Source: a virus
Taxonomy: Duplodnaviria; Heunggongvirae; Uroviricota; Caudoviricetes
DNA: 29,878 nucleotides
IMG/VR virus record: IMGVR_UViG_2675903394_000003
Reading direction: 5' to 3' (one strand)
The notes under the pieces are model-generated. The model was not told where the DNA came from. It saw only the letters and a program-made list of their open reading frames with translations, and ran no database searches. The position numbers and the translations under genes were made by a program. Position 1 is the first letter of the stretch. Every line of letters starts with the position of its first letter. Of this stretch, positions 1,958-26,590 are shown in pieces.

Positions 1958-4405
1958 TTAACCGTCATGCATCATGCTGGCACGGGCGCGCGCACGTTTA
2001 TCCCGCTCGTATTTTTCGAGCGCATCCTGTAACTGGCGGTCAAGCTGTGTCCCCGGCGCAGTACCACCCGTCAGGCTGATGTGATATTCGTTTTTACTCT
2101 GGTCTACATAAGAGCGGCCAGCCGGTGCCGTGACCGGCTGATAAGCCTGATAGCCTGCATAAGAGCTGGTCGCCGGAATATAACCACCGGTGCCATACGT
2201 GGCGGCATTAGTCCTTGCGGCGGTCTGGTCAAGTGTGTCTGACTCTTTGTTGATAACACCGAGTTTTTCCAGTACCCAGTCAATACCACTGCGCAGTTTG
2301 TTGAACGCATTAAGCGGCAGCATCAACGCGTCAGCCAGTGCCTGCCCGAACATGACGCCCGTGTCACGGCAACGGTTCAGGGTGTCCTGTGTGGCTTTAA
2401 CCGGGGCAATCAGGTTTTTAAACCACTGCCACGCGGCCTGTAACTTTTCGCCCAGCCAGTCAAACACCGGCTTCAGTGGCGTGAACAGTTCCCCCACCGG
2501 CGCAAATGCCGCTTTCAGCCCTTCAACCACACCGCCAAAGAATGCGCTGACAGGCTCCCAGTATTTACGGATAAGCAACGCCCCGGCGACAATGGCAGCC
2601 ACCACGGCCACAACCGGCCAGCTAATAGCCCCGATGGCGGTCATAACAGCACTGCCAACCGTCGTGAAGATTGCCCCCATTGCGCCTGCTGCCGCGATGA
2701 TGGCATTGATGCCGGTGATAACCGGCCAGGCTACGAGGCCAATGGCACCGATGACACCAGTCAGCGCCAGTGCACCACCGACAATGAGGCCGATGGTTGA
2801 CGCCAGTGATTTGTTTTTCTGGATCCAGCCGTCGAGTTTTAACACATACTTTGTGGCCGTCTGCGTGAGATTACGCAGTGCGCCTTCCTGCTGGTCAAAC
2901 AGGTCAGTTCCCACCGCCTCATAAGCGGACTGAAACTCCTTAAAGTCACCGCCGAGGTTATCCTGCATGATTTTAACCAGCTCTTCCGTTTTACCGTCCG
3001 AGGCTTTCAGCGTGGCGGTCAGCTTATCCAGTTTTCCGCTTGCTGCCGCTGCCAGTAAAACGTTCGCTGATTTCAGGGCTTCCTCACCAAAAATGGTTTT
3101 AAGGTATTCCCCCTTCTGAGACGTTCCCAGCTTGTGTTTATCAAAGCTGGCCTGAATCTCTTTCAGAATGGTGAACAACGGACGCATATTTCCCTTTTTG
3201 TCCGAGGTTTTAACGCCAAGCTCTTTGAGTGCATCCCATGCTTTTCCAGTCGGTGCCTGTAATCGGGTGACAACGGCGCTGCTACCCGTCCCCGCCATTG
3301 ACCCCCTGATGTTATTGTCATGCAGCACACCTGTCATGGCTGCTGCCTGTTCAAGACTTACACCTGCCGTCTTCGCAACCGGGCCGAGGTAAGTCAGTGC
3401 ATCACTGAGTCCCTGAAAATCAGCCGCCGACTTATTCATCGTTGCCGACAACACGTCGCCCACATGGCTGACATCATCATTTGACAGTTGAAACGATGCC
3501 TTAGTCCCCAGCAACAGTTGCGCGTTTTCTTCCATCGACCGCTGATTCGCCAGTGCCATATTCAGCGTGACCGGCGTTGCCGCCTGAATAGCCGCAGCAT
3601 CTCCACCCGCTTTCGCAATAATAATCTGCGCACCGGCCGCATCATCCGCCGAGGCGGCGGTATTGTCGCCGAGCTGGCGCGCCTGTTTGCGTAATGCGGC
3701 CATTTCGGTGGAGTCTTTTGCCACACCGAGCACGGCCTGTAATTCTGAGTTTTTCTGCGCAAACTCATAACCGGGCATCAGCAGCTTAACTCCGGCCATC
3801 GTTCCCGCCGCCGCAATCCCCACACCGGCAGCGCCTACTGAGGCCATATTTCCGGCCAGTTCCTTTCCTGCCTGATAACGCTGTTTGACTGCGTTAAGTT
3901 TTGCCTGTTGTGCACTGACACGCGCCAGCGCGTCACGCTGACGGTTAAGCTGGGCGGTGGTTTCACTGATACGGTTTTTCAGCCCTCGTTCATCATGCGC
4001 CAGATTACGGGTATTAATACCCGCCTGACTCAATTCCTGACGCTGGCGCTGTACCGACAATCTCAGGCTGTTATATTTCGCCTGTAACTCAGACACATTT
4101 TTACGCGCGGCTTCCATTGCCTTTGCCTGTGCATTTGTCGGTCGTTCAGTATTTTTAAACTGGACAGCCAGAGCTGCGGCTTCCTGTCTGGCTTTTTTCA
4201 GTTCCTGACCAGTCACGGCGAGCTGTGCACTGGTCTTGCGAAATCCCTCAATACGGGATGCCTGACCGTTCAGCTCGCGCAGTGATTTTTGTGTGTCCCG
4301 GATATCCCCCGACAGCGACTTACTCGCTGTACGGATGGATTTAAACGGGCGGGATGCCTGGTCAACAGCCCTGAGCAATACCTGTAATTTTACATTGTTA
4401 CTCAT
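1958..4405 (-). CDS. T: Tail tape measure protein T, 815 aa
   Basis: Length identical to P2 gpT; coiled-coil-rich N-terminal half and Gly/Ala-rich hydrophobic segment; follows E/E'. Confidence 0.93.
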   Translation of the reverse strand: MSNNVKLQVLLRAVDQASRPFKSIRTASKSLSGDIRDTQKSLRELNGQASRIEGFRKTSAQLAVTGQELKKARQEAAALAVQFKNTERPTNAQAKAMEAARKNVSELQAKYNSLRLSVQRQRQELSQAGINTRNLAHDERGLKNRISETTAQLNRQRDALARVSAQQAKLNAVKQRYQAGKELAGNMASVGAAGVGIAAAGTMAGVKLLMPGYEFAQKNSELQAVLGVAKDSTEMAALRKQARQLGDNTAASADDAAGAQIIIAKAGGDAAAIQAATPVTLNMALANQRSMEENAQLLLGTKASFQLSNDDVSHVGDVLSATMNKSAADFQGLSDALTYLGPVAKTAGVSLEQAAAMTGVLHDNNIRGSMAGTGSSAVVTRLQAPTGKAWDALKELGVKTSDKKGNMRPLFTILKEIQASFDKHKLGTSQKGEYLKTIFGEEALKSANVLLAAAASGKLDKLTATLKASDGKTEELVKIMQDNLGGDFKEFQSAYEAVGTDLFDQQEGALRNLTQTATKYVLKLDGWIQKNKSLASTIGLIVGGALALTGVIGAIGLVAWPVITGINAIIAAAGAMGAIFTTVGSAVMTAIGAISWPVVAVVAAIVAGALLIRKYWEPVSAFFGGVVEGLKAAFAPVGELFTPLKPVFDWLGEKLQAAWQWFKNLIAPVKATQDTLNRCRDTGVMFGQALADALMLPLNAFNKLRSGIDWVLEKLGVINKESDTLDQTAARTNAATYGTGGYIPATSSYAGYQAYQPVTAPAGRSYVDQSKNEYHISLTGGTAPGTQLDRQLQDALEKYERDKRARARASMMHDG

Positions 4406-4825
4406 TCGTGTTTCCGCTTCGCCGGAGCGCCTTTTCGCGCCATGTGATGAGTTCGGTCAGGCTCATGGGATACAGTTCTGATGGCGGCCAGTGAAATACC
4501 ACTGCCACATCCGCCATCAGGTCATCGACCGACAGATTTTTCGGAAACGTCACTGCACCGAGTTCGGCGACAAAAAACCGACCACCTTACCGGCCAGCGC
4601 CACAAGGTCAGGCAGTTCCAGCGCGGCGACTTCCTGCTCGGTCAGCATCGGTGCCGTCATGCGCGGCAGCACCTTAATCAGTGCATCGACTTCGGAGTTT
4701 GCAACCGCAGCCAGACTGACACCGCGCAGCGTCCCGGCATTGGGTTTCATCAGCGTGACCTGTTCGATAACCTGCTCACCACGTTTGACCGGATTTTCCA
4801 GGGTAATGACATTTTCTTTGTTCAT
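4398..4825 (-). CDS. E+E': E+E' tail chaperone made by programmed -1 ribosomal frameshift (predicted 142 aa)
   Basis: Slippery heptamer T_TTT_TTG on the minus strand (plus 4571-4577) at E codons 84-85; the -1 frame stays open for 57 codons to a TAA at 4398-4400 that overlaps the T start; 85+57=142 aa as in P2. Confidence 0.8.
4550..4825 (-). CDS. E: Tail assembly chaperone E, 91 aa
   Basis: Sequence MNKENVITLENPVKRGEQV... matches P2 gpE; ATG confirmed. Confidence 0.92.
   Translation of the reverse strand: MNKENVITLENPVKRGEQVIEQVTLMKPNAGTLRGVSLAAVANSEVDALIKVLPRMTAPMLTEQEVAALELPDLVALAGKVVGFLSPNSVQ
4571..4577 (-). other. Slippery site TTTTTTG for the E/E' -1 frameshift
   Basis: Read directly from the minus-strand sequence; X_XXY_YYZ in the E frame (GGT TTT TTG). 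Confidence 0.8.
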
Positions 4826-19997: not shown

Positions 19998-21031
19998 TGA
20001 GCAAGAAAAAAGGGAAAACACCGCAGCCAGCGGTGAAAACAATGACCGCCAGCGCCCCGAAAATGGAGGCATTCACCTTTGGTGAGCCGGTGCCGGTACT
20101 CGACCGCCGTGACATTCTGGATTACGTCGAGTGCATCAGTAACGGCAGATGGTATGAGCCACCGGTCAGCTTTACCGGTCTGGCAAAAAGCCTGCGTGCT
20201 GCCGTGCATCACAGCTCACCGATTTACGTCAAACGTAATATTCTGGCCTCAACATTTATCCCGCATCCGTGGCTTTCTCAGCAGGATTTCAGCCGCTTTG
20301 TGCTGGATTTTCTGGTGTTCGGTAATGCGTTTCTGGAAAAGCGTTACAGCACCACCGGTAAGGTCATCAGACTGGAAACCTCACCGGCAAAATATACCCG
20401 CCGTGGCGTGGAGGAGGATGTTTACTGGTGGGTGCCGTCCTTCAACGAGCCGACAGCCTTCGCGCCCGGCTCCGTGTTTCACCTGCTGGAGCCGGATATT
20501 AATCAGGAGCTGTACGGCCTGCCGGAATATCTCAGCGCCCTTAACTCTGCCTGGCTGAATGAGTCGGCCACGCTGTTCCGCCGCAAGTATTACGAAAACG
20601 GCGCTCATGCCGGATATATCATGTACGTCACCGATGCCGTGCAGGATCGCAACGATATCGAAATGCTTCGCGAAAACATGGTGAAGTCGAAAGGCCGCAA
20701 TAACTTTAAAAATCTGTTTCTCTATGCCCCACAGGGGAAAGCCGACGGCATTAAAATTATCCCCCTCAGTGAAGTGGCAACGAAGGACGATTTTTTTAAT
20801 ATCAAAAAAGCCAGTGCCGCTGACCTGCTGGACGCACACCGCATCCCTTTTCAGTTGATGGGCGGCAAGCCGGAGAACGTCGGGTCGTTGGGTGATATTG
20901 AGAAAGTGGCAAAGGTCTTTGTCCGCAATGAGCTTATCCCGTTACAGGACAGGATCCGCGAGATAAACGGCTGGCTCGGTCAGGAGGTCATCCGCTTTAA
21001 AAACTACTCACTGGACACTGACAACGGCTGA
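19997..21031 (+). CDS. Q: Portal (capsid vertex) protein Q, 344 aa
   Basis: ATGA overlap with the P stop; length as P2 gpQ. Confidence 0.93.
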   Translation: MSKKKGKTPQPAVKTMTASAPKMEAFTFGEPVPVLDRRDILDYVECISNGRWYEPPVSFTGLAKSLRAAVHHSSPIYVKRNILASTFIPHPWLSQQDFSRFVLDFLVFGNAFLEKRYSTTGKVIRLETSPAKYTRRGVEEDVYWWVPSFNEPTAFAPGSVFHLLEPDINQELYGLPEYLSALNSAWLNESATLFRRKYYENGAHAGYIMYVTDAVQDRNDIEMLRENMVKSKGRNNFKNLFLYAPQGKADGIKIIPLSEVATKDDFFNIKKASAADLLDAHRIPFQLMGGKPENVGSLGDIEKVAKVFVRNELIPLQDRIREINGWLGQEVIRFKNYSLDTDNG

Positions 21032-21036
21032 ACATC

Positions 21037-21058
21037 GCCGCCTGCGGGCGGCTTTTTT
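21037..21058 (+). terminator. Rho-independent terminator after Q
   Basis: GCCGCC-TGCG-GGCGGC followed by TTTTTT, 6 nt after the Q stop. Confidence 0.8.
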
Positions 21059-21200
21059 ACACCCCGTCATCACGCCCTCACACGCTCACCACCGCACAAA
21101 ACACCCCACAGACACACCAACGCCCCGGCGCACAATCTAAACGCCATCACGACGCGCTCAGACGCTGAAAAAATAAAATCAGCACCACCGCCAGCGCGCA

Positions 21201-21219
21201 GTGCTTTCCCCGCCTCGCC
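21201..21219. other. cos: cos site (19-nt cohesive end, intact as expected in a prophage)
   Basis: GTGCTTTCCCCGCCTCGCC is the reverse complement of GGCGAGGCGGGGAAAGCAC, which I recall as the P2 cohesive end; it lies between Q and the accessory region as in P2. Confidence 0.8.
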
Positions 21220-21242
21220 CGCCCGCTTCATAGGGCGGTTTT
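21219..21242 (+). terminator. GC-rich hairpin with a short T-run next to cos
   Basis: CCGCCC-GCTTCATA-GGGCGG followed by TTTT; function uncertain. Confidence 0.3.
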
Positions 21243-21425
21243 AATGCAGTTGCACGAACAATCCAGATTCGCGCCAGCTCTGACAATATACTGTCAGAGC
21301 AAGCACGTCTGACGCATGCAAAAAAATGCATCTTTTGTATGCAATGCAGAAATCAAACAAATTTGAGTATAAATTAACGATGAGTCCTATGATTTTTAAC
21401 TTCATCCCTAGCAGTTAACAGCAAA

Positions 21426-22361
21426 TTAAAAGTCTTTATCTGCCTGATACTGCCCTGAACAGTAGTAACAACGATACTCAACATCACCATCATCCATTGG
21501 CCAAATGCTCATTTCGCTGCTGGGAGCCTGCGCACCACAACAATCGCAAGCAACATCAATATCATCACTATCTTCATTCTGACAAAAAGTGCATTTGTAA
21601 CCCGTAGAAGACTCATCAGAGGGAATCATTGTGTCGTTAGAACACTCAGGACATTCATAAACTTTCCAATCGACCAATTCATAAAATTTATGCCTAACCC
21701 CATAAAAAGCTTCAGCCTCTCTTTCTTCAACTTCTTTCTTGGCTTCAGAGAGCCGATGAGAGTATTCATCAGCTAAAGTTTGAAATATCTGTAAGTTATC
21801 TGCACCGACTTCATCTTCAAGATTAAAAAGATCGAAGATATCAATAAACTCAGCTACCCCCCGGACGAGGCGTCCAATACACAAGCGCGCGTCTTTAGGA
21901 GTAAGTCTGAATTGATAATGCTCAATATCATTTCTTAAATTCTTTATCCAAGCTATATCATTACAAAAATCAATATCTACAAAATCAACCCCAGTTATGC
22001 CGCATTTCTCACACTTAGCAAAGTTTAGTGCCTGATCTAAGGTTATCGTATATGGCTTAGATTTCCCTTCAATGAACCTTCCTAAATCAACGCCATCCTC
22101 GATAATTTTATTATATGCGTCTAAAAGACTGATTGATTCTTGCTTTGCTCTTGTAGCTATTTGTTTATAGCAATCGGAATACAGTAAATTTTCATCTACT
22201 GTAACAATATATAACTTCAACACCAGCTCAAGAAAATGTGACAAATGCAAGATAGCAAATTTATATTGCCGCAATTCTCCTCTCTGCCCTAACTCATACT
22301 TCGCTAAAGCTTCATTAAAACTATCAATAGCATTCTCTTGTAAATCCAGTTGATATTCCAT
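21426..22361 (-). CDS. Hypothetical cysteine-rich protein (311 aa from the preferred start) with an R-x4-H HEPN-like motif and C-terminal CxxC pairs; candidate defence-associated protein
   Basis: Long ORF in AT-rich cargo; preferred start is the ATG at 22359-22361, preceded by AGGTGA, while the track start at 22406 has no RBS; motif LRNDIEHY at nt 21918-21935; CPEC...CTFC and CDCC...CYYC at nt 21459-21653. Confidence 0.7.
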   Translation of the reverse strand: MEYQLDLQENAIDSFNEALAKYELGQRGELRQYKFAILHLSHFLELVLKLYIVTVDENLLYSDCYKQIATRAKQESISLLDAYNKIIEDGVDLGRFIEGKSKPYTITLDQALNFAKCEKCGITGVDFVDIDFCNDIAWIKNLRNDIEHYQFRLTPKDARLCIGRLVRGVAEFIDIFDLFNLEDEVGADNLQIFQTLADEYSHRLSEAKKEVEEREAEAFYGVRHKFYELVDWKVYECPECSNDTMIPSDESSTGYKCTFCQNEDSDDIDVACDCCGAQAPSSEMSIWPMDDGDVEYRCYYCSGQYQADKDF

Positions 22362-22426
22362 TACATCACCTAAAAAATTCATATTTATATGAGTGCAGAA
22401 AACCATTCAGCACTCATTGCTTATAA

Positions 22427-23158
22427 TCAATTATCTAATATTGATACAACCTCTCCCGTTCGTATGTCGACGCGCGCAGCTATAGTCTGCTTAACCACTC
22501 CACCATAAGCATTAGTACCGCGAAACGTAGTTTTCACAATAGCGTACGGGTCTTTATTCAAAACCAAATGATATACCGTTGACACATGTTTATAAGATGA
22601 ATCATCGTTCATATTATCTTTAATTAGTTTTTCCAATGGACGATAAGAACCATCCCAACCACTAAAATTACTCTGAAATGTATCAAGATTGATTTTATTG
22701 TTTAGTGAATTCGGGTCATTTTCATAATCATTAAAGCACCACCCAAGAACATCACCGAGTTTCAACTCATCATCTTTGGTAAATGTATACTCACTCATGC
22801 AGGCATAAAACGCATCTGACGCGGTGGCTGGAACTTCCTTAAAATCAATGTAACTATTCACAATATCGTGTCGTGTTTTCTTTGACTCGTTCCGATATTC
22901 CTTGAGTGTTTTTTCACCATATTCGAATGTTTTTTGGACTTTGTGTTCTGCAACGGTTGATGTTTCAGTTTTAGCAACTGGCTGGCTTTTTTCTGTTGGA
23001 TAGAGTATTGAACCAATTATGCTCAATACAAAACCTCCTCCGAGATAAACCGCACTTGCACGTTTGCGGTTTGGCATTCGCACCAGTGATGGCTTGATTA
23101 ACCCGATGAAGAAAGCAACGAAAAAAGCGAGTGATAGAAAAGCGATTATAGTATCCAT
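22427..23158 (-). CDS. Hypothetical membrane protein (243 aa from the preferred start) with two N-terminal TM helices and a ~180-aa C-terminal domain
   Basis: Hydrophobic segments IIAFLSLAFFVAFFIGLI and AVYLGGGFVLSIIGSILY separated by the basic loop KPSLVRMPNRKRAS; preferred start is the ATG at 23156-23158, preceded by AAGGA; AT-rich. Confidence 0.7.
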   Translation of the reverse strand: MDTIIAFLSLAFFVAFFIGLIKPSLVRMPNRKRASAVYLGGGFVLSIIGSILYPTEKSQPVAKTETSTVAEHKVQKTFEYGEKTLKEYRNESKKTRHDIVNSYIDFKEVPATASDAFYACMSEYTFTKDDELKLGDVLGWCFNDYENDPNSLNNKINLDTFQSNFSGWDGSYRPLEKLIKDNMNDDSSYKHVSTVYHLVLNKDPYAIVKTTFRGTNAYGGVVKQTIAARVDIRTGEVVSILDN

Positions 23159-23381
23159 AGCTATCCTTTTTGCATCATCCACATAAAAAATCGACCTCAT
23201 GTTAGCAACAGGATGCTTACTTTTGAATATTTGTAAGTTGTTGGCTCTCCAACCTAACTCCTTTCAACCGTCAAAAACCGGCACCAACGCAGTAAAAATA
23301 TGTCTGTCAACTAACGCCTCGCTTCGCTCGTTGTTCAACCCCGCCAGCCCTGAAAACAAGTTTCACGACTGGCGGCGTTCT

Positions 23382-23588
23382 CTATCGTCTGCGTGGTGGT
23401 GGCGTAACTCTTGATTGACCGATATGATTAAACCGCCCGTAATTATCCCGGACTATTTCGGCACACCCGACCAGCTCATCGGGCGTCATATTTTCGTTGA
23501 CCATAATCCGCTGTAAACGCTGAACAATAGCCATCAGCTTGATATTTTTAGTTTTATGGTGCGGTATCTCGCCTGGTATTCTGTGCAT
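23382..23588 (-). CDS. Hypothetical small protein (68 aa)
   Basis: ATG at 23586-23588 overlaps the upstream stop as TAATG (translational coupling); the track ORF start at 23600 is a GTG. Confidence 0.45.
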   Translation of the reverse strand: MHRIPGEIPHHKTKNIKLMAIVQRLQRIMVNENMTPDELVGCAEIVRDNYGRFNHIGQSRVTPPPRRR

Positions 23589-24043
23589 TATCCAAGCCAC
23601 CCGTTTTGCTGTGCACGCTCCATCTGTTCATCTGAATAGTTCCATGCTCCATCCGTGGCAACCATTGCCCCGCCAGACATCCCCGTCTCTGGTTCATACA
23701 TAACAGCAAGGCCGAGCTGATGCATAATTTCATGATTAATTCTGAATACCAGACCACGCTCACTAAGTTCTTTCCAGTTCACAATCTCATATGCGCCTGT
23801 ATTAAGCAGCTCAATACTTAGCAAGACATAATCTTCCAGCCAGTCTGACAGGTCAGTAACATCTGTTATCCGGGCTTCAACCTTTCGCCCCGTATACACA
23901 CCCTGCACCCATTCATGCAAAATCAACGTGTCCCCGTGCTCATAATTACGGTCATTTTTCCGAAACTCTGCGCGTTTCTTTCCTTCCAGCACAAGGTCGA
24001 AATATTTTGCGTGCAGCTTTACCTCGTGAATTTTTGCCATCAT
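23588..24043 (-). CDS. ASCH/DUF3850-like (PUA-fold) protein, about 151 aa
   Basis: N-terminal MAKIHEVKLHAKYFDLVLEGKKRAEFRKNDRNYEHGDTLILHEW resembles the DUF3850/ASCH signature as I remember it; ATG at 24041-24043 overlaps the A stop and is preceded by GGAG. Confidence 0.6.
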   Translation of the reverse strand: MMAKIHEVKLHAKYFDLVLEGKKRAEFRKNDRNYEHGDTLILHEWVQGVYTGRKVEARITDVTDLSDWLEDYVLLSIELLNTGAYEIVNWKELSERGLVFRINHEIMHQLGLAVMYEPETGMSGGAMVATDGAWNYSDEQMERAQQNGWLG

Positions 24044-26325
24044 CTCCACTCCATTACTGTTGAGAATCCCGGCCACTCATCAGCGACCGGATACGTGAAT
24101 TTTTTCCCGTCATAATTTACAGTCGCGCCACGCGCCAGCGCCTCAAGCTCCCATCGCTGCGGCCTGATACCGTTCTGAGCAAGGTCAACGCGGATACGGG
24201 TAATTTGCATTCGTTCCGACCGGGTCAGTCTGGCCGATGGCGCTATTTCATGCGGTTTTAACGGGCTTCCGGCTCTTTGCTGACGATTTGGTGTTCTCAG
24301 GCCGTGTTTTAATGCGCCCCTGAGCGCCCTCACGACCTCCGGGTCATTCCATTCGATAACACCGTCATCAACCAGATTAAGCACTGCTGCGGCGTGTTCA
24401 GAAGGTGTGGGAGCCGGTAACGAAGCATCACTGCTGGCAGGCTTTCCACAGTTATTGACAGGACTCCGAGGCGCGGCGATGCCGCTTTTTAAAGTCAAAG
24501 GCTCCACGACCGGAACTTTCGGCACAATGCGCCAGTCCGTCGTTCTGGTGATATGAATATGACGCGCGCCGAGATGCGGCGCGTAAATGCCGACCACTCT
24601 CTCGACCTCTTCCTCGTACTCGTTAACGTCATCCGACGGGCTACGGGCGACCCTGACAGTCTGACAATCGCGCGGGACATTTGCCCCACCCTGCGCGCTG
24701 ATATACAACGCAAAATCACCACTGTCTGCGGCGGCGCGTGCAGCCTCGACGCGCTCGTCAAACTCATCAGCAATGCTGACGCCGCGCGGCAATTTGCGTA
24801 GTTCACGGTAAGCCCCCATTGTCGGCAGACCAACCGTTTTAAATTGCGGGATGCGCCACGTTGACGCCCATGCAGTAACAGCCGCGGCAGTATCTTTCAG
24901 CGGTCTGCCGGTATCGTTATCGAGCTGACCATCCAGTGCATAGCCGTCGATGTTTTTTGAGATGTATTTCGCGATATACCCCGCAGCACCACCCCGATTA
25001 AGGTGTTTTGCCTGAAAACGGTTTCGCGCGGCTCCTCTTTCGTCGCCATCCTCTTTGAGCGCATAGCGACGCATGATTTCGATAATCTGGTTACGCTGGC
25101 GTGGATTACAAAAAAGCATCATATGCCAGTGCGGCGTTCCGTCGTGGTGTGGCTCGACGACTCGCAAACCGTAGACCTGTAAATCATTATCCTTGAATGC
25201 CGTGCGCATCAGGCTCCAGATACGGCAGAGATATCGCTGCGCATCCTTTGGATTAAATGCCTCATCATTCCAGCCGTGATTAAGCTGGACGGTTTTACTT
25301 TCGCCTTTTCCGACCTGACGTGTCGGGTGATACTTTGACGGTGCGGTCAGCGTGATAAACATCCCCACATCACCCTCTGCGGCGGCGTAACGCTCAATAC
25401 CGGCGATGGTGTTCATCAGCTCCATCCGGCGAATTTCAGGATTAGAAATACTGCCCATCACCTTACTGATAAGGTCGATGCGCTCGCCGGTTTCCCTGTT
25501 TTCAAGGTCACACGATTTAAGAAATTCCAGATTTGCCTGGCGGCGTGCACGCACATCCCGAATGGCATGTTTACTGGCATAAGGAGAACGGTCTTTATTG
25601 ACCTCCCCGACAGCTATCAGTAACGCCTCATGCCAGCGCATACGCTGGCCTTTAAGCTGATGAGTCCACCACTCATCGTTAAACAGGCGGGCAATGGCAG
25701 AATATGCCTGCCTCGTGGTCATCTGTCCTTTACGGTATTTTTTCCAGTAGAGAGGGGAAATATTGAAAGCACGTGCAGCGCCAGCAACATGACCATAGAG
25801 GTGAGCCTGCGCCTCATCCGTAAACAGCGATTCTTTCTCGCCATGCGCATCCACCCAGGCATCGCAGAGTTCCTCATACATCATGAAAAGCTGCGATGAA
25901 ATACGGGCGGCAAACTTTTTCAGCTCCTTGTCATTCATTCCAGGCAGGCGCGCATAGTGGTCGCGCTCTGCCAGAAACAGCAACGACGCGTCGGTGTTCA
26001 TTTCATGGCGCTGATTCACGCGCTCAATGCGCGGCCATAAACGACGCTGAAAAGTGGATGTGAGGAAATAAAACCCGTGCACCGGGCTTTTATTGCGCCG
26101 GATGTAGTCATAGCGTGAAGTAAACAGCGAGCGCAAAAAGTAAGGCAGGCGGTTAATCGTGGATAAAACACCTTGCACCTGACGCATCTCGTCACGTGTA
26201 AGGGGTCTTTCGCGCCCGACAGCCTCGCGTGGCGCGTTCCATGCATAAGCACCGGTAAACATCTTACCGGTGCCTGCGGCAAATGCTGACGGAGGGACAA
26301 AACGCCCGGAGGCTTTAACGGCCAT
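24040..26325 (-). CDS. A: Replication initiation protein A (rolling-circle nickase), 761 aa
   Basis: Start at MAVKASGRFVPP (ATG 26323-26325) gives the P2 gpA length; the track start at 26367 is a TTG. Confidence 0.92.
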   Translation of the reverse strand: MAVKASGRFVPPSAFAAGTGKMFTGAYAWNAPREAVGRERPLTRDEMRQVQGVLSTINRLPYFLRSLFTSRYDYIRRNKSPVHGFYFLTSTFQRRLWPRIERVNQRHEMNTDASLLFLAERDHYARLPGMNDKELKKFAARISSQLFMMYEELCDAWVDAHGEKESLFTDEAQAHLYGHVAGAARAFNISPLYWKKYRKGQMTTRQAYSAIARLFNDEWWTHQLKGQRMRWHEALLIAVGEVNKDRSPYASKHAIRDVRARRQANLEFLKSCDLENRETGERIDLISKVMGSISNPEIRRMELMNTIAGIERYAAAEGDVGMFITLTAPSKYHPTRQVGKGESKTVQLNHGWNDEAFNPKDAQRYLCRIWSLMRTAFKDNDLQVYGLRVVEPHHDGTPHWHMMLFCNPRQRNQIIEIMRRYALKEDGDERGAARNRFQAKHLNRGGAAGYIAKYISKNIDGYALDGQLDNDTGRPLKDTAAAVTAWASTWRIPQFKTVGLPTMGAYRELRKLPRGVSIADEFDERVEAARAAADSGDFALYISAQGGANVPRDCQTVRVARSPSDDVNEYEEEVERVVGIYAPHLGARHIHITRTTDWRIVPKVPVVEPLTLKSGIAAPRSPVNNCGKPASSDASLPAPTPSEHAAAVLNLVDDGVIEWNDPEVVRALRGALKHGLRTPNRQQRAGSPLKPHEIAPSARLTRSERMQITRIRVDLAQNGIRPQRWELEALARGATVNYDGKKFTYPVADEWPGFSTVMEWR

Positions 26326-26590
26326 ATGAGCCAAAAGCCTCTGAACAACGCTTGCTGAGTTGTTCAACCTGCGCGTTTAAATCAGCAAAAGATTTTGCGC
26401 TTCCGGTCAGAATATCGTGATGCATCAGGCCGGAAACGAGCTGGCTTAATTTCGGGTAATAACCAACCACCGCCAGCCATTCCTGACCGGCGTTTTTACC
26501 GCTTTCAGCTCTCTTTTTCTCGTGGAGAATAAACTGAAAGCTGTCACTGGTAACGACATAACGTTCGCCAATTTCAATACGAATACTCAT
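26315..26590 (-). CDS. Early-operon hypothetical protein (orf83-like), 91 aa
   Basis: ATG confirmed; overlaps the A start; position as P2 orf83. Confidence 0.7.
   Translation of the reverse strand: MSIRIEIGERYVVTSDSFQFILHEKKRAESGKNAGQEWLAVVGYYPKLSQLVSGLMHHDILTGSAKSFADLNAQVEQLSKRCSEAFGSYGR

Follow-up and report, generated by a model that had tools for sequence, protein, structure and literature searches.

Phage P2 is a model phage, and the interval between its replication gene A and its portal gene Q has become an object of study for the defence genes that it harbours. This gpA-gpQ interval has been defined as a defence hotspot in a survey that counts both of the genes discussed here inside it (PMC9122126). 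Directly after A (28034..30319), the P2 genome (NC_001895) carries Orf91 (30316..30645), which overlaps A by 4 nucleotides (nt) and is annotated as a DUF3850 protein. In coliphage 186, the same genome region is occupied by an SOS operon (p95-tum-t95a-orf97-t95b). Elsewhere in phage loci, N6-adenine methylases and ParB have been found with ASCH domains, either as fusions or in a common operon (PMC4738411), and phage ParB-CTPase-DUF3850 fusions have also been published. In the literature searched we found no functional study of orf91, of DUF7415 or of phage ClpX-zinc-finger proteins. Here we compare with these systems the corresponding locus of a virus of the Caudoviricetes, IMG/VR record IMGVR_UViG_2675903394_000003, whose whole sequence of 29,878 nt we call the window. 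On its minus strand two open reading frames, ORF1 and ORF2, together take up exactly the span 23382-24043, between gene A and a structured element (Table 1). We read them as two separate, non-essential accessory genes at the 3' end of a P2-type early (replication) operon, and from the sequence evidence we give this reading, together with the molecular roles proposed below, a probability of about 0.6. That ORF1 and ORF2 are real, coupled and optional early-operon genes of the families named below appears very likely, and the molecular roles that we propose for them are tentative and of low probability. As features both genes are already known, with annotated, near-identical copies in public databases.

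Table 1. Features of the locus, with positions in the window
Feature	Position	Strand	Evidence
Gene A (replication initiator, context)	24040..26325	-	PF05840 Phage_GPA, E 3e-124; 97-98% identical to gpA of P2, Wphi and L-413C
ORF1, Orf91-family protein, 151 aa	23588..24043	-	phrog_1812, full length, E 1.5e-82
DUF3850 / mini-ASCH domain of ORF1 (PUA-like beta-barrel), residues 5-77	23813..24031	-	PF12961, PF04266 and 3iuw matches
DUF7415 domain of ORF1, Pfam core residues 87-129, contains HEIMH	23657..23785	-	PF24187, E 1.9e-14
ORF2, 68-aa protein, predicted helical hairpin, C-terminal PPRRR tail	23382..23588	-	phrog_11386, E 1.6e-38
Structured 3' element, 71 nt, directly after the ORF2 stop	23311..23381	-	Alignments, folding, covariance model

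The preliminary description of the window had chained both ORFs to gene A by overlapping start and stop codons, and each junction that it described is present. The A stop codon, TGA, lies at 24042-24040 and the first ATG of ORF1 at 24043-24041, giving a 4-nt overlap in the sequence ATGA. Upstream of this start the sequence reads AATGGAGTGGAG, then ATGATG, and it contains the reported GGAG 5 nt from the first ATG as well as another GGAG that abuts the ATG. The second in-frame ATG (24040-24038) would give a protein of 150 residues, and either ATG has been used by RefSeq annotators. At the next junction, base 23588 is common to the ORF1 stop TAA (23590-23588) and the ORF2 ATG (23588-23586), which produces the TAATG overlap; the Shine-Dalgarno sequence of ORF2 is weak here (GGTGG/TGGA).

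Both ORFs are conserved. Several sequenced Peduovirus genomes contain them intact at 95-98% identity, with ORF1 97-98% identical to P22H4 gp41 and P2SIAC10 gp04, and ORF2 is under strong purifying selection, as described below; RefSeq E. coli genomes annotate both as coding sequences. In a divergent locus (L082), where A is ~45% and ORF1 ~51-62% identical, the A gene, the ASCH-DUF7415 gene and the small ORF keep overlapping or abutting starts, and the trio retains TAATG-type junctions. Because the position matches that in P2, the proteins are conserved, ORF2 is under selection and the coupling is kept in L082, the earlier proposal that both ORFs are translated as an extension of the early operon is well supported at the sequence level. 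ORF1 and ORF2 would be translated by coupling, through the overlaps at the A stop and at the ORF1 stop. We also considered a promoter or LexA box belonging to the pair itself and dropped the idea: promoter-like signals in 21000-24600 were not above chance (10 sites, compared to 7.7 +/- 3.2 expected), and no LexA box was found in 21300-24200. The window likewise lacks tum.

The assignment of ORF1 to the ASCH/DUF3850 group, which the preliminary description had suggested, is borne out by profile and structure searches. Taking membership in a Pfam family to mean a score above its curated gathering threshold, ORF1 belongs both to DUF3850 (PF12961; 64.8 bits against a cutoff of 22.9, E 8.4e-18, profile positions 1-77 of 77) and to ASCH (PF04266; 41.8 bits against 21.2, E 1.8e-10). 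Its N-terminal domain matches the sequence of Protein Data Bank (PDB) entry 3iuw with E 1.4e-13, at 40% identity over 76-80 residues. Furthermore, the AlphaFold2 (AF2) model of this domain, which has a predicted local distance difference test (pLDDT) score of ~80, matches 3iuw in Foldseek with a template modelling (TM) score of 0.89 and a root-mean-square deviation of 1.4 A; the next matches are YqfB, PH0355 and the ASCH domain of TRIP4. The 3IUW protein, a structural-genomics structure from Enterococcus faecalis named 'activating signal cointegrator', has the same PUA-like beta-barrel and also has GxKxxExR, the motif that Iyer and colleagues are said to have put forward in 2006 as the ASCH signature. 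In ORF1 the motif is present as G21-R28 (GKKRAEFR), which aligns to K-T-F-E-I-R of 3iuw. However, 3IUW is a stand-alone domain of 83 residues without an assigned function, whereas ORF1 adds DUF7415.

The relationship to ASCH proteins raises the possibility that ORF1 is an enzyme, either an ASCH hydrolase or nuclease or, through its HEIMH motif, a zinc metalloprotease. Overall we regard this as unlikely. The fold search with the N-terminal domain does list YqfB, an N4-acetylcytidine (ac4C) amidohydrolase (E 1e-2), and the ribonuclease ZmASCH, and the GxKxxExR motif is present; however, the ASCH part is a minimal barrel of ~75 residues, like 3IUW, and it aligns to YqfB and ZmASCH at 11-12% identity with TM scores of ~0.35-0.5. 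Thus this part lacks much of the larger ASCH enzymes. In general, the characterised ASCH proteins (YqfB, TRIP4 ASCH and ZmASCH) are larger than ORF1 and remote from it (11-17% identity). What does recur is the placement of DUF3850 genes at A. In P2-like phages the gene lies 3' of A; in a 186-like IMG/VR contig (L044) a stand-alone DUF3850 gene lies directly upstream of A and overlaps its reading frame; and in a Serratia prophage (L021, 1332-1592) the order is RNase T-like gene, Dam methylase, DUF3850, 3'-phosphoadenosine-5'-phosphosulfate (PAPS) reductase, A. We suggest that the ORF1 barrel may bind nucleic acid, most likely DNA or RNA with a modified base at the replicating genome.

C-terminal to the barrel, ORF1 matches DUF7415 with 54 bits against a cutoff of 27, and conservation continues past the Pfam core to about residue 146, with phrog_3954 matching over residues 85-146. 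By tblastn the domain occurs in 834 phage records, mainly from T4-like Klebsiella phages and T5-like Salmonella and Escherichia phages, where copies are stand-alone or tandem and lie in early-gene clusters; a search with the DUF7415 domain alone returned close relatives only. The proteins of Klebsiella phage Miro (gp178), Salmonella phage Stitch (gp113/gp114) and Pseudomonas phage QdP_Psa3 (CDS0082) score above the Pfam cutoff and have in common with ORF1 the core W.EL...GL.(F/W)RIN.EI.HPLGLA....ETG.S.GA....DG.W.Y. In lytic phages the domain is thus found stand-alone, in tandem or joined to other regions, in the early clusters of virulent phages; the window, from a temperate phage, has it joined to an ASCH barrel. 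The HEIMH sequence within it conforms to HExxH and is invariant among the close P2-like homologues of ORF1, which would suit a metalloprotease. Across the DUF7415 family, however, the first His is replaced, by R in Miro gp178 and L082, by N in QdP_Psa3 CDS0082 and by F in Stitch gp114, and no third conserved zinc ligand was found in the domain. Because the motif is not conserved across the family, we ruled out the zincin metalloprotease reading. Rather than a protease, this module of ~55-65 residues from the early genes of lytic phages may be a protein-interaction or effector module.

Comparison with P2 shows that the reference Orf91 is a reduced form. The position given for P2 orf91 in the preliminary description was correct: NP_046796 follows A directly and overlaps it by the same 4 nt, and over its first 75 residues it is 96% identical to ORF1. 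The two proteins are not colinear over their full length, as P2 has a different C-terminus. P2 Orf91 has 109 residues. It has lost DUF7415 through a deletion of 232 nt (window 23819-23588), which brings its frame into the first ~9 codons of ORF2 (HRILGEILP); beyond these lies the tin/old cassette. At the nucleotide level, P2 matches the window as far as 23820 and, after a gap of 232 nt, for another 27 nt at the ORF2 start, after which tin/old takes over. By this comparison the reference P2 Orf91 is a truncated deletion chimera that joins the ASCH domain to the first codons of ORF2. The window seems to have a fuller, undeleted form, with a 151-residue ORF1 and an intact ORF2. The chimera lies at 4317-4646 of our NC_001895 locus (L004), corresponding to window 23561-23820. 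Phage L-413C keeps the full gene (orf91, 150 residues) and has ORF2 reduced to 13 codons, and P22H4, 'P2SIAC10' and many prophages have kept both genes. We also noted that gp91 (93 aa) and gp92 (64 aa) of Wphi (AY135739; L002 3662-4177) seem to be the ASCH-DUF7415 gene and the beginning of the small ORF read out of frame, which could be due to frameshifts in the 2002 sequence or to real decay.

ORF2 is, from its pattern of substitution, a genuine protein-coding gene under selection. The phrog_11386 profile matches residues 1-67 on positions 1-68 of 69, and the 128 homologues come from Escherichia, Salmonella, Citrobacter, Enterobacter, Buttiauxella and other genera. Between lineages the synonymous divergence (dS) is saturated (>1) and the nonsynonymous divergence (dN) is 0.1-0.2, with a ratio of the two (omega) of 0.05-0.17, and the first 16 codons have the same selection pattern as the rest. 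The core of the protein, KLMAIVHRLQQIMVNENLTPxELVGCAEIVRDNY, is almost invariant. Insertions and deletions are confined to the tail, whose length varies by whole codons and whose end stays PPRRR or PPRRP. Free-standing copies have their own GAGGG or AGGAG ribosome-binding site, and AF2 predicts helices at residues 10-31 and 36-59 with a core pLDDT above 90. Together with the in-frame fusion of a zinc finger in relatives, which we come to below, the confident hairpin model, the whole-codon changes that keep the PPRRR end, the good ribosome-binding sites and above all the codon analysis, which includes the N-terminal 16 codons, essentially refute the alternative that ORF2 is non-coding and is conserved for an element in the DNA or RNA, which could be a recombination site or a 5' portion of the hairpin structure. 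That alternative could draw on the fact that ORF2 is unannotated in some phage records, that its first 27-41 nt survive in P2 and L-413C with the rest gone, and that a strongly conserved non-coding element lies directly 3' of it.

The predicted ORF2 hairpin had no Foldseek match in the PDB or BFVD and no PDB profile match, and the protein had no match in Pfam, NCBIfam or PADLOC. Its described orthologues, 73-79% identical, are gp37 of Salmonella phage PSP3, the mis-framed gp92 of Wphi and a RefSeq protein called 'meiotically up-regulated 80 protein'. Both PSP3 gp37 and ORF2 lie between A and cos/Q with the same 3' element after them. However, gp37 is free-standing, downstream of LexA-controlled tumA/tumB and between two flanking copies of the element, whereas ORF2 in the window is coupled to ORF1. 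The RefSeq versions of the small ORF (50-51 aa) begin at internal codon 18/19. Several database names in this group look misleading (L016 6524-6679; L022 3483-3815; L023 3522-3842): 'meiotically up-regulated 80 protein' is attached to the N-truncated copies of 50-51 residues, and 'Carboxylate--amine ligase' to P88 gp19 and D6 orf93, proteins with a helical domain and a ClpX-type zinc finger.

The preliminary description had offered two possibilities, that these genes are accessory parts of the phage backbone or that they belong to the cargo of the hotspot. Their distribution gives an answer. Of the 1520 complete E. coli genomes that have this A 3' end, 344 (~23%) keep homology through both ORFs, and in most of the remaining genomes similarity already ends in the final 5-30 nt of A. 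ORF2 can be detected in 470 E. coli genomes, and in every locus compared it shares the strand of A and is located between A and the portal gene Q. Copies without ORF1 are found after tumA/tumB, with a LexA box upstream, in PSP3, L007 and several prophages; after a DUF2158 gene and a hypothetical gene in L016; and tightly abutting unrelated genes of 58-101 aa in L009, L011, L027 and L037. The variable genes that precede ORF2 in other loci had no matches in Pfam. In the 186-like phages ORF2 lies downstream of the LexA-box-controlled tum and would therefore be expressed at induction. Conversely, ORF1 is found without ORF2 in L-413C and P2, and DUF3850 and DUF7415 each also occur alone. Because 344 of the 1520 genomes keep the pair and 470 have ORF2, both genes are optional and neither is universal backbone. 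In about three-quarters of the E. coli genomes with this type of A gene, DNA similarity is lost 5-30 nt ahead of the A stop codon, which places the hotspot boundary inside the 3' end of A (window 24045-24075).

The same distribution bears on whether the two ORFs belong together as an obligate two-component unit, such as a toxin-antitoxin or sensor-effector pair. Their stop/start overlap and co-occurrence in two divergent lineages would fit such a unit, as would the fact that ~73% of the E. coli copies of ORF2 (344/470) adjoin ORF1. However, ORF2 without ORF1 in PSP3 and the six other loci just named, ORF1 without ORF2 in L-413C and P2, and the separate occurrence elsewhere of each ORF1 domain make an obligate unit very improbable.

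A second alternative is that the two genes are hotspot cargo, expressed from the prophage for lysogenic conversion or anti-phage defence in the manner of tin/old. Both ORFs do lie within the gpA-gpQ defence hotspot, the supplementary tables of the survey list 'DUF3850/ASCH + hypothetical...' arrangements, and Orf91 is part of its cloned old-tin construct (PMC9122126). The patchy distribution, with the pair in 344 of 1520 genomes, and the downstream neighbours, an Orf97-like exclusion candidate and a PDC-S64-like protein, could be read in the same way. However, the ORFs are on the strand of the repressed early operon with starts that overlap the preceding stops, promoter-like signals are not above chance, and PADLOC-DB gave no significant match (for ORF1 the best was E 0.022 over 20 residues; for ORF2 there was none). 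DUF3850, moreover, tracks gene A on either side in different lineages, and the presence of DUF7415 mostly in strictly lytic T4-like and T5-like phages argues for a function that benefits the phage. We therefore consider the cargo explanation improbable. The repeated attachment of DUF3850 to A, the same-strand overlapping starts, the chance level of promoter signals and the lack of PADLOC matches argue that ORF1 and ORF2 are lytic-operon accessories and not prophage-expressed defence cargo.

A possible function for ORF2 is suggested by its distant relatives. A profile search of 1.84 billion representative proteins with ORF2 returned 31 clusters only. In six of these (101-122 aa, from Pectobacterium, Serratia and Cedecea; E 8e-11 to 3e-5), the ORF2 domain is fused to a zf-C4_ClpX zinc finger (PF06689) that scores above threshold. 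In a Serratia P2-like prophage the fusion gene has the same position as ORF2, in the order A, methylase-like gene, fusion gene, hicAB, portal. Phage P88 gp19, which lies between A and the portal gene, and phage D6 orf93 also combine a helical domain and a zinc finger, and the zinc finger of P88 gp19 matches the structure of the E. coli ClpX zinc-binding domain (1OVX) with E 2e-19 and ~80% identity. In P88 gp19, D6 orf93 and the Pectobacterium, Serratia and Cedecea proteins the N-terminal helical domain is homologous to ORF2; however, these relatives end in the C4 zinc finger, whereas ORF2 of the window ends in a Pro/Arg tail. Because the ORF2 domain is fused to a ClpX zinc-binding domain in other Enterobacterales prophages, we infer a ClpX-related role. 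ORF2 may act on ClpX-dependent recognition while the phage is induced and grows lytically; it could, for example, protect a phage protein from ClpXP or serve as a decoy or adaptor. The basic tail of ORF2 could be a docking peptide or a degron, although this is speculation.

Several observations weigh against our reading of two accessory genes with these roles. Reference P2 grows without DUF7415 and without nearly all of ORF2, and about three-quarters of the related E. coli prophages are without both genes; any role of ORF1 or ORF2 must therefore be dispensable. The coupling of the two ORFs to A is deduced from the arrangement of their codons. The DUF7415 part of the AF2 model, which was built from a 13-sequence alignment, is of low confidence (pLDDT 36-56). 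On the side of ORF2, the homology of its domain to the N-terminal domains of the P88 and D6 proteins is moderate (hhalign probability 71%), the link to ClpX comes from domain fusion in distant relatives, and ORF2 of the window is itself without the zinc finger, having one Cys and no PF06689 match. To our knowledge, no ligand, partner or phenotype has been described for DUF3850, DUF7415 or the ORF2 family.

After ORF2, the rightward message would run into the conserved element that follows its stop codon. This element consists of a 17-bp hairpin (23379-23337) and a short second stem and ends in GGCGTTAG; homology between phages stops exactly at these last bases. It is 85-95% identical in loci whose ORF2 synonymous divergence is saturated, and its fold energy is -35 kcal/mol (z -2.8). 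A covariance model (R1) finds 88 copies. Over these, pairing holds in 95.8% of cells, and compensatory changes occur at 11 of 17 pairs in the long helix, compared to 17-45% paired in controls in which the alignment was slid; the alignment had been fitted to the covariance model, which favours structure in these figures. Frequent G-U pairs on the sense strand point to a structure at the RNA level. The element does not look like an intrinsic terminator, in which a GC-rich hairpin runs straight into a U tract, as its hairpin is followed by GGGGUUGAACAACGAG with no U tract, and the terminator scan does not list it. Rfam gave no match at gathering thresholds; the best sub-threshold score was 20 bits, compared to 60, and irrelevant. 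We also considered whether the element is the 186 terminator t95a and ruled this out, as t95a is a different hairpin. In phage 186 the element lies between orf97 and t95b, with the annotated t95b ~25 nt further on.

The gene that ends at the element varies. Among 120 viral contigs, which were chosen by an exact 17-mer, the gene ending just 5' of it was ORF2 in 52, orf97 in 25 and dinI/tum in 23. Two copies flank ORF2 in two prophages as well as in PSP3, and two flank orf97 in an E. coli prophage. To judge from these contexts, the element acts as a 3' tail shared by the alternative genes with which the rightward transcript ends. It could stabilise the message or be a site of processing, and it might also provide the homology at which cassettes are exchanged. 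We can put together a more specific proposal, which is doubtful: that ORF2 is a ClpX modulator (decoy, adaptor or anti-adaptor), and that the element defines exchangeable 'gene + hairpin' cassettes in the A-Q hotspot of the Peduoviridae. The ORF2 hairpin would then bind a phage or host client and the PPRRR tail would dock on the ClpX zinc-binding domain, a link that the Serratia, Pectobacterium, P88 and D6 relatives would make in cis through their zinc finger, and the 71-nt element would end each of the alternative genes (tum/dinI, orf97 and ORF2).

The surroundings of the locus can be compared with the 186 SOS operon, since the next gene in the window is Orf97-like. Phage 186 has no ORF1 after A and no ORF2, whereas the window has no LexA box and no tum. 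The Orf97-like gene (22427-23200, minus strand; probable start M15, ~23158) encodes a 257-aa membrane protein homologous to 186 Orf97 (phrog_3403, E 5e-147). The hairpin element precedes the gene here but follows orf97 in 186; the 186 record states that orf97 expressed from a plasmid blocks 186 infection. Further along (21426-22406, minus strand) is a 326-aa protein (phrog_20824) that matches the PADLOC candidate defence model PDC-S64 with E 2e-17 and has a Cys-rich C-terminus with weak similarity to an NrdD-like zinc ribbon. This protein is probably the real defence cargo of the hotspot. On the other side of the locus, gene A probably starts with the ATG at 26325 (MAVKASG...), which gives 761 aa as in P2. 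The program-made ORF runs to a TTG at 26367 (775 aa); the ATG is probably to be preferred, from comparison with the 761 residues in P2 and with homologues that start MAVKASG. It overlaps the end of an Orf83-like gene (26315-26590).

Taken as a whole, the preliminary description had the ORFs and their family right, and it overlooked the DUF7415 domain, the truncation of P2 Orf91, the ClpX-zinc-finger relatives and the RNA element. What the comparison adds is that Orf91 has two domains and that its P2 version is chimeric, that ORF2 is under selection and related to proteins with a ClpX zinc finger, that both genes are distributed as optional modules, and that a structured element follows ORF2. 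These findings are not greatly surprising, and the roles that we suggest for ORF1 and ORF2 are predictions. For work on the family, neither the DUF7415 domain nor the small protein would be captured by experiments on P2 itself. For the family of the small protein, found in ~9% of complete E. coli genomes, the relatives with a ClpX zinc finger give a first handle that can be tested. The structured 3' element, in turn, is a candidate for a new phage RNA motif. An ASCH-DUF7415 gene and a small gene appended to A, together with DUF3850 genes that adjoin A in several lineages, would be a mark of the lytic operon. Telling such lytic-operon genes from prophage-expressed cargo within the A-Q interval changes how surveys of this hotspot are read.

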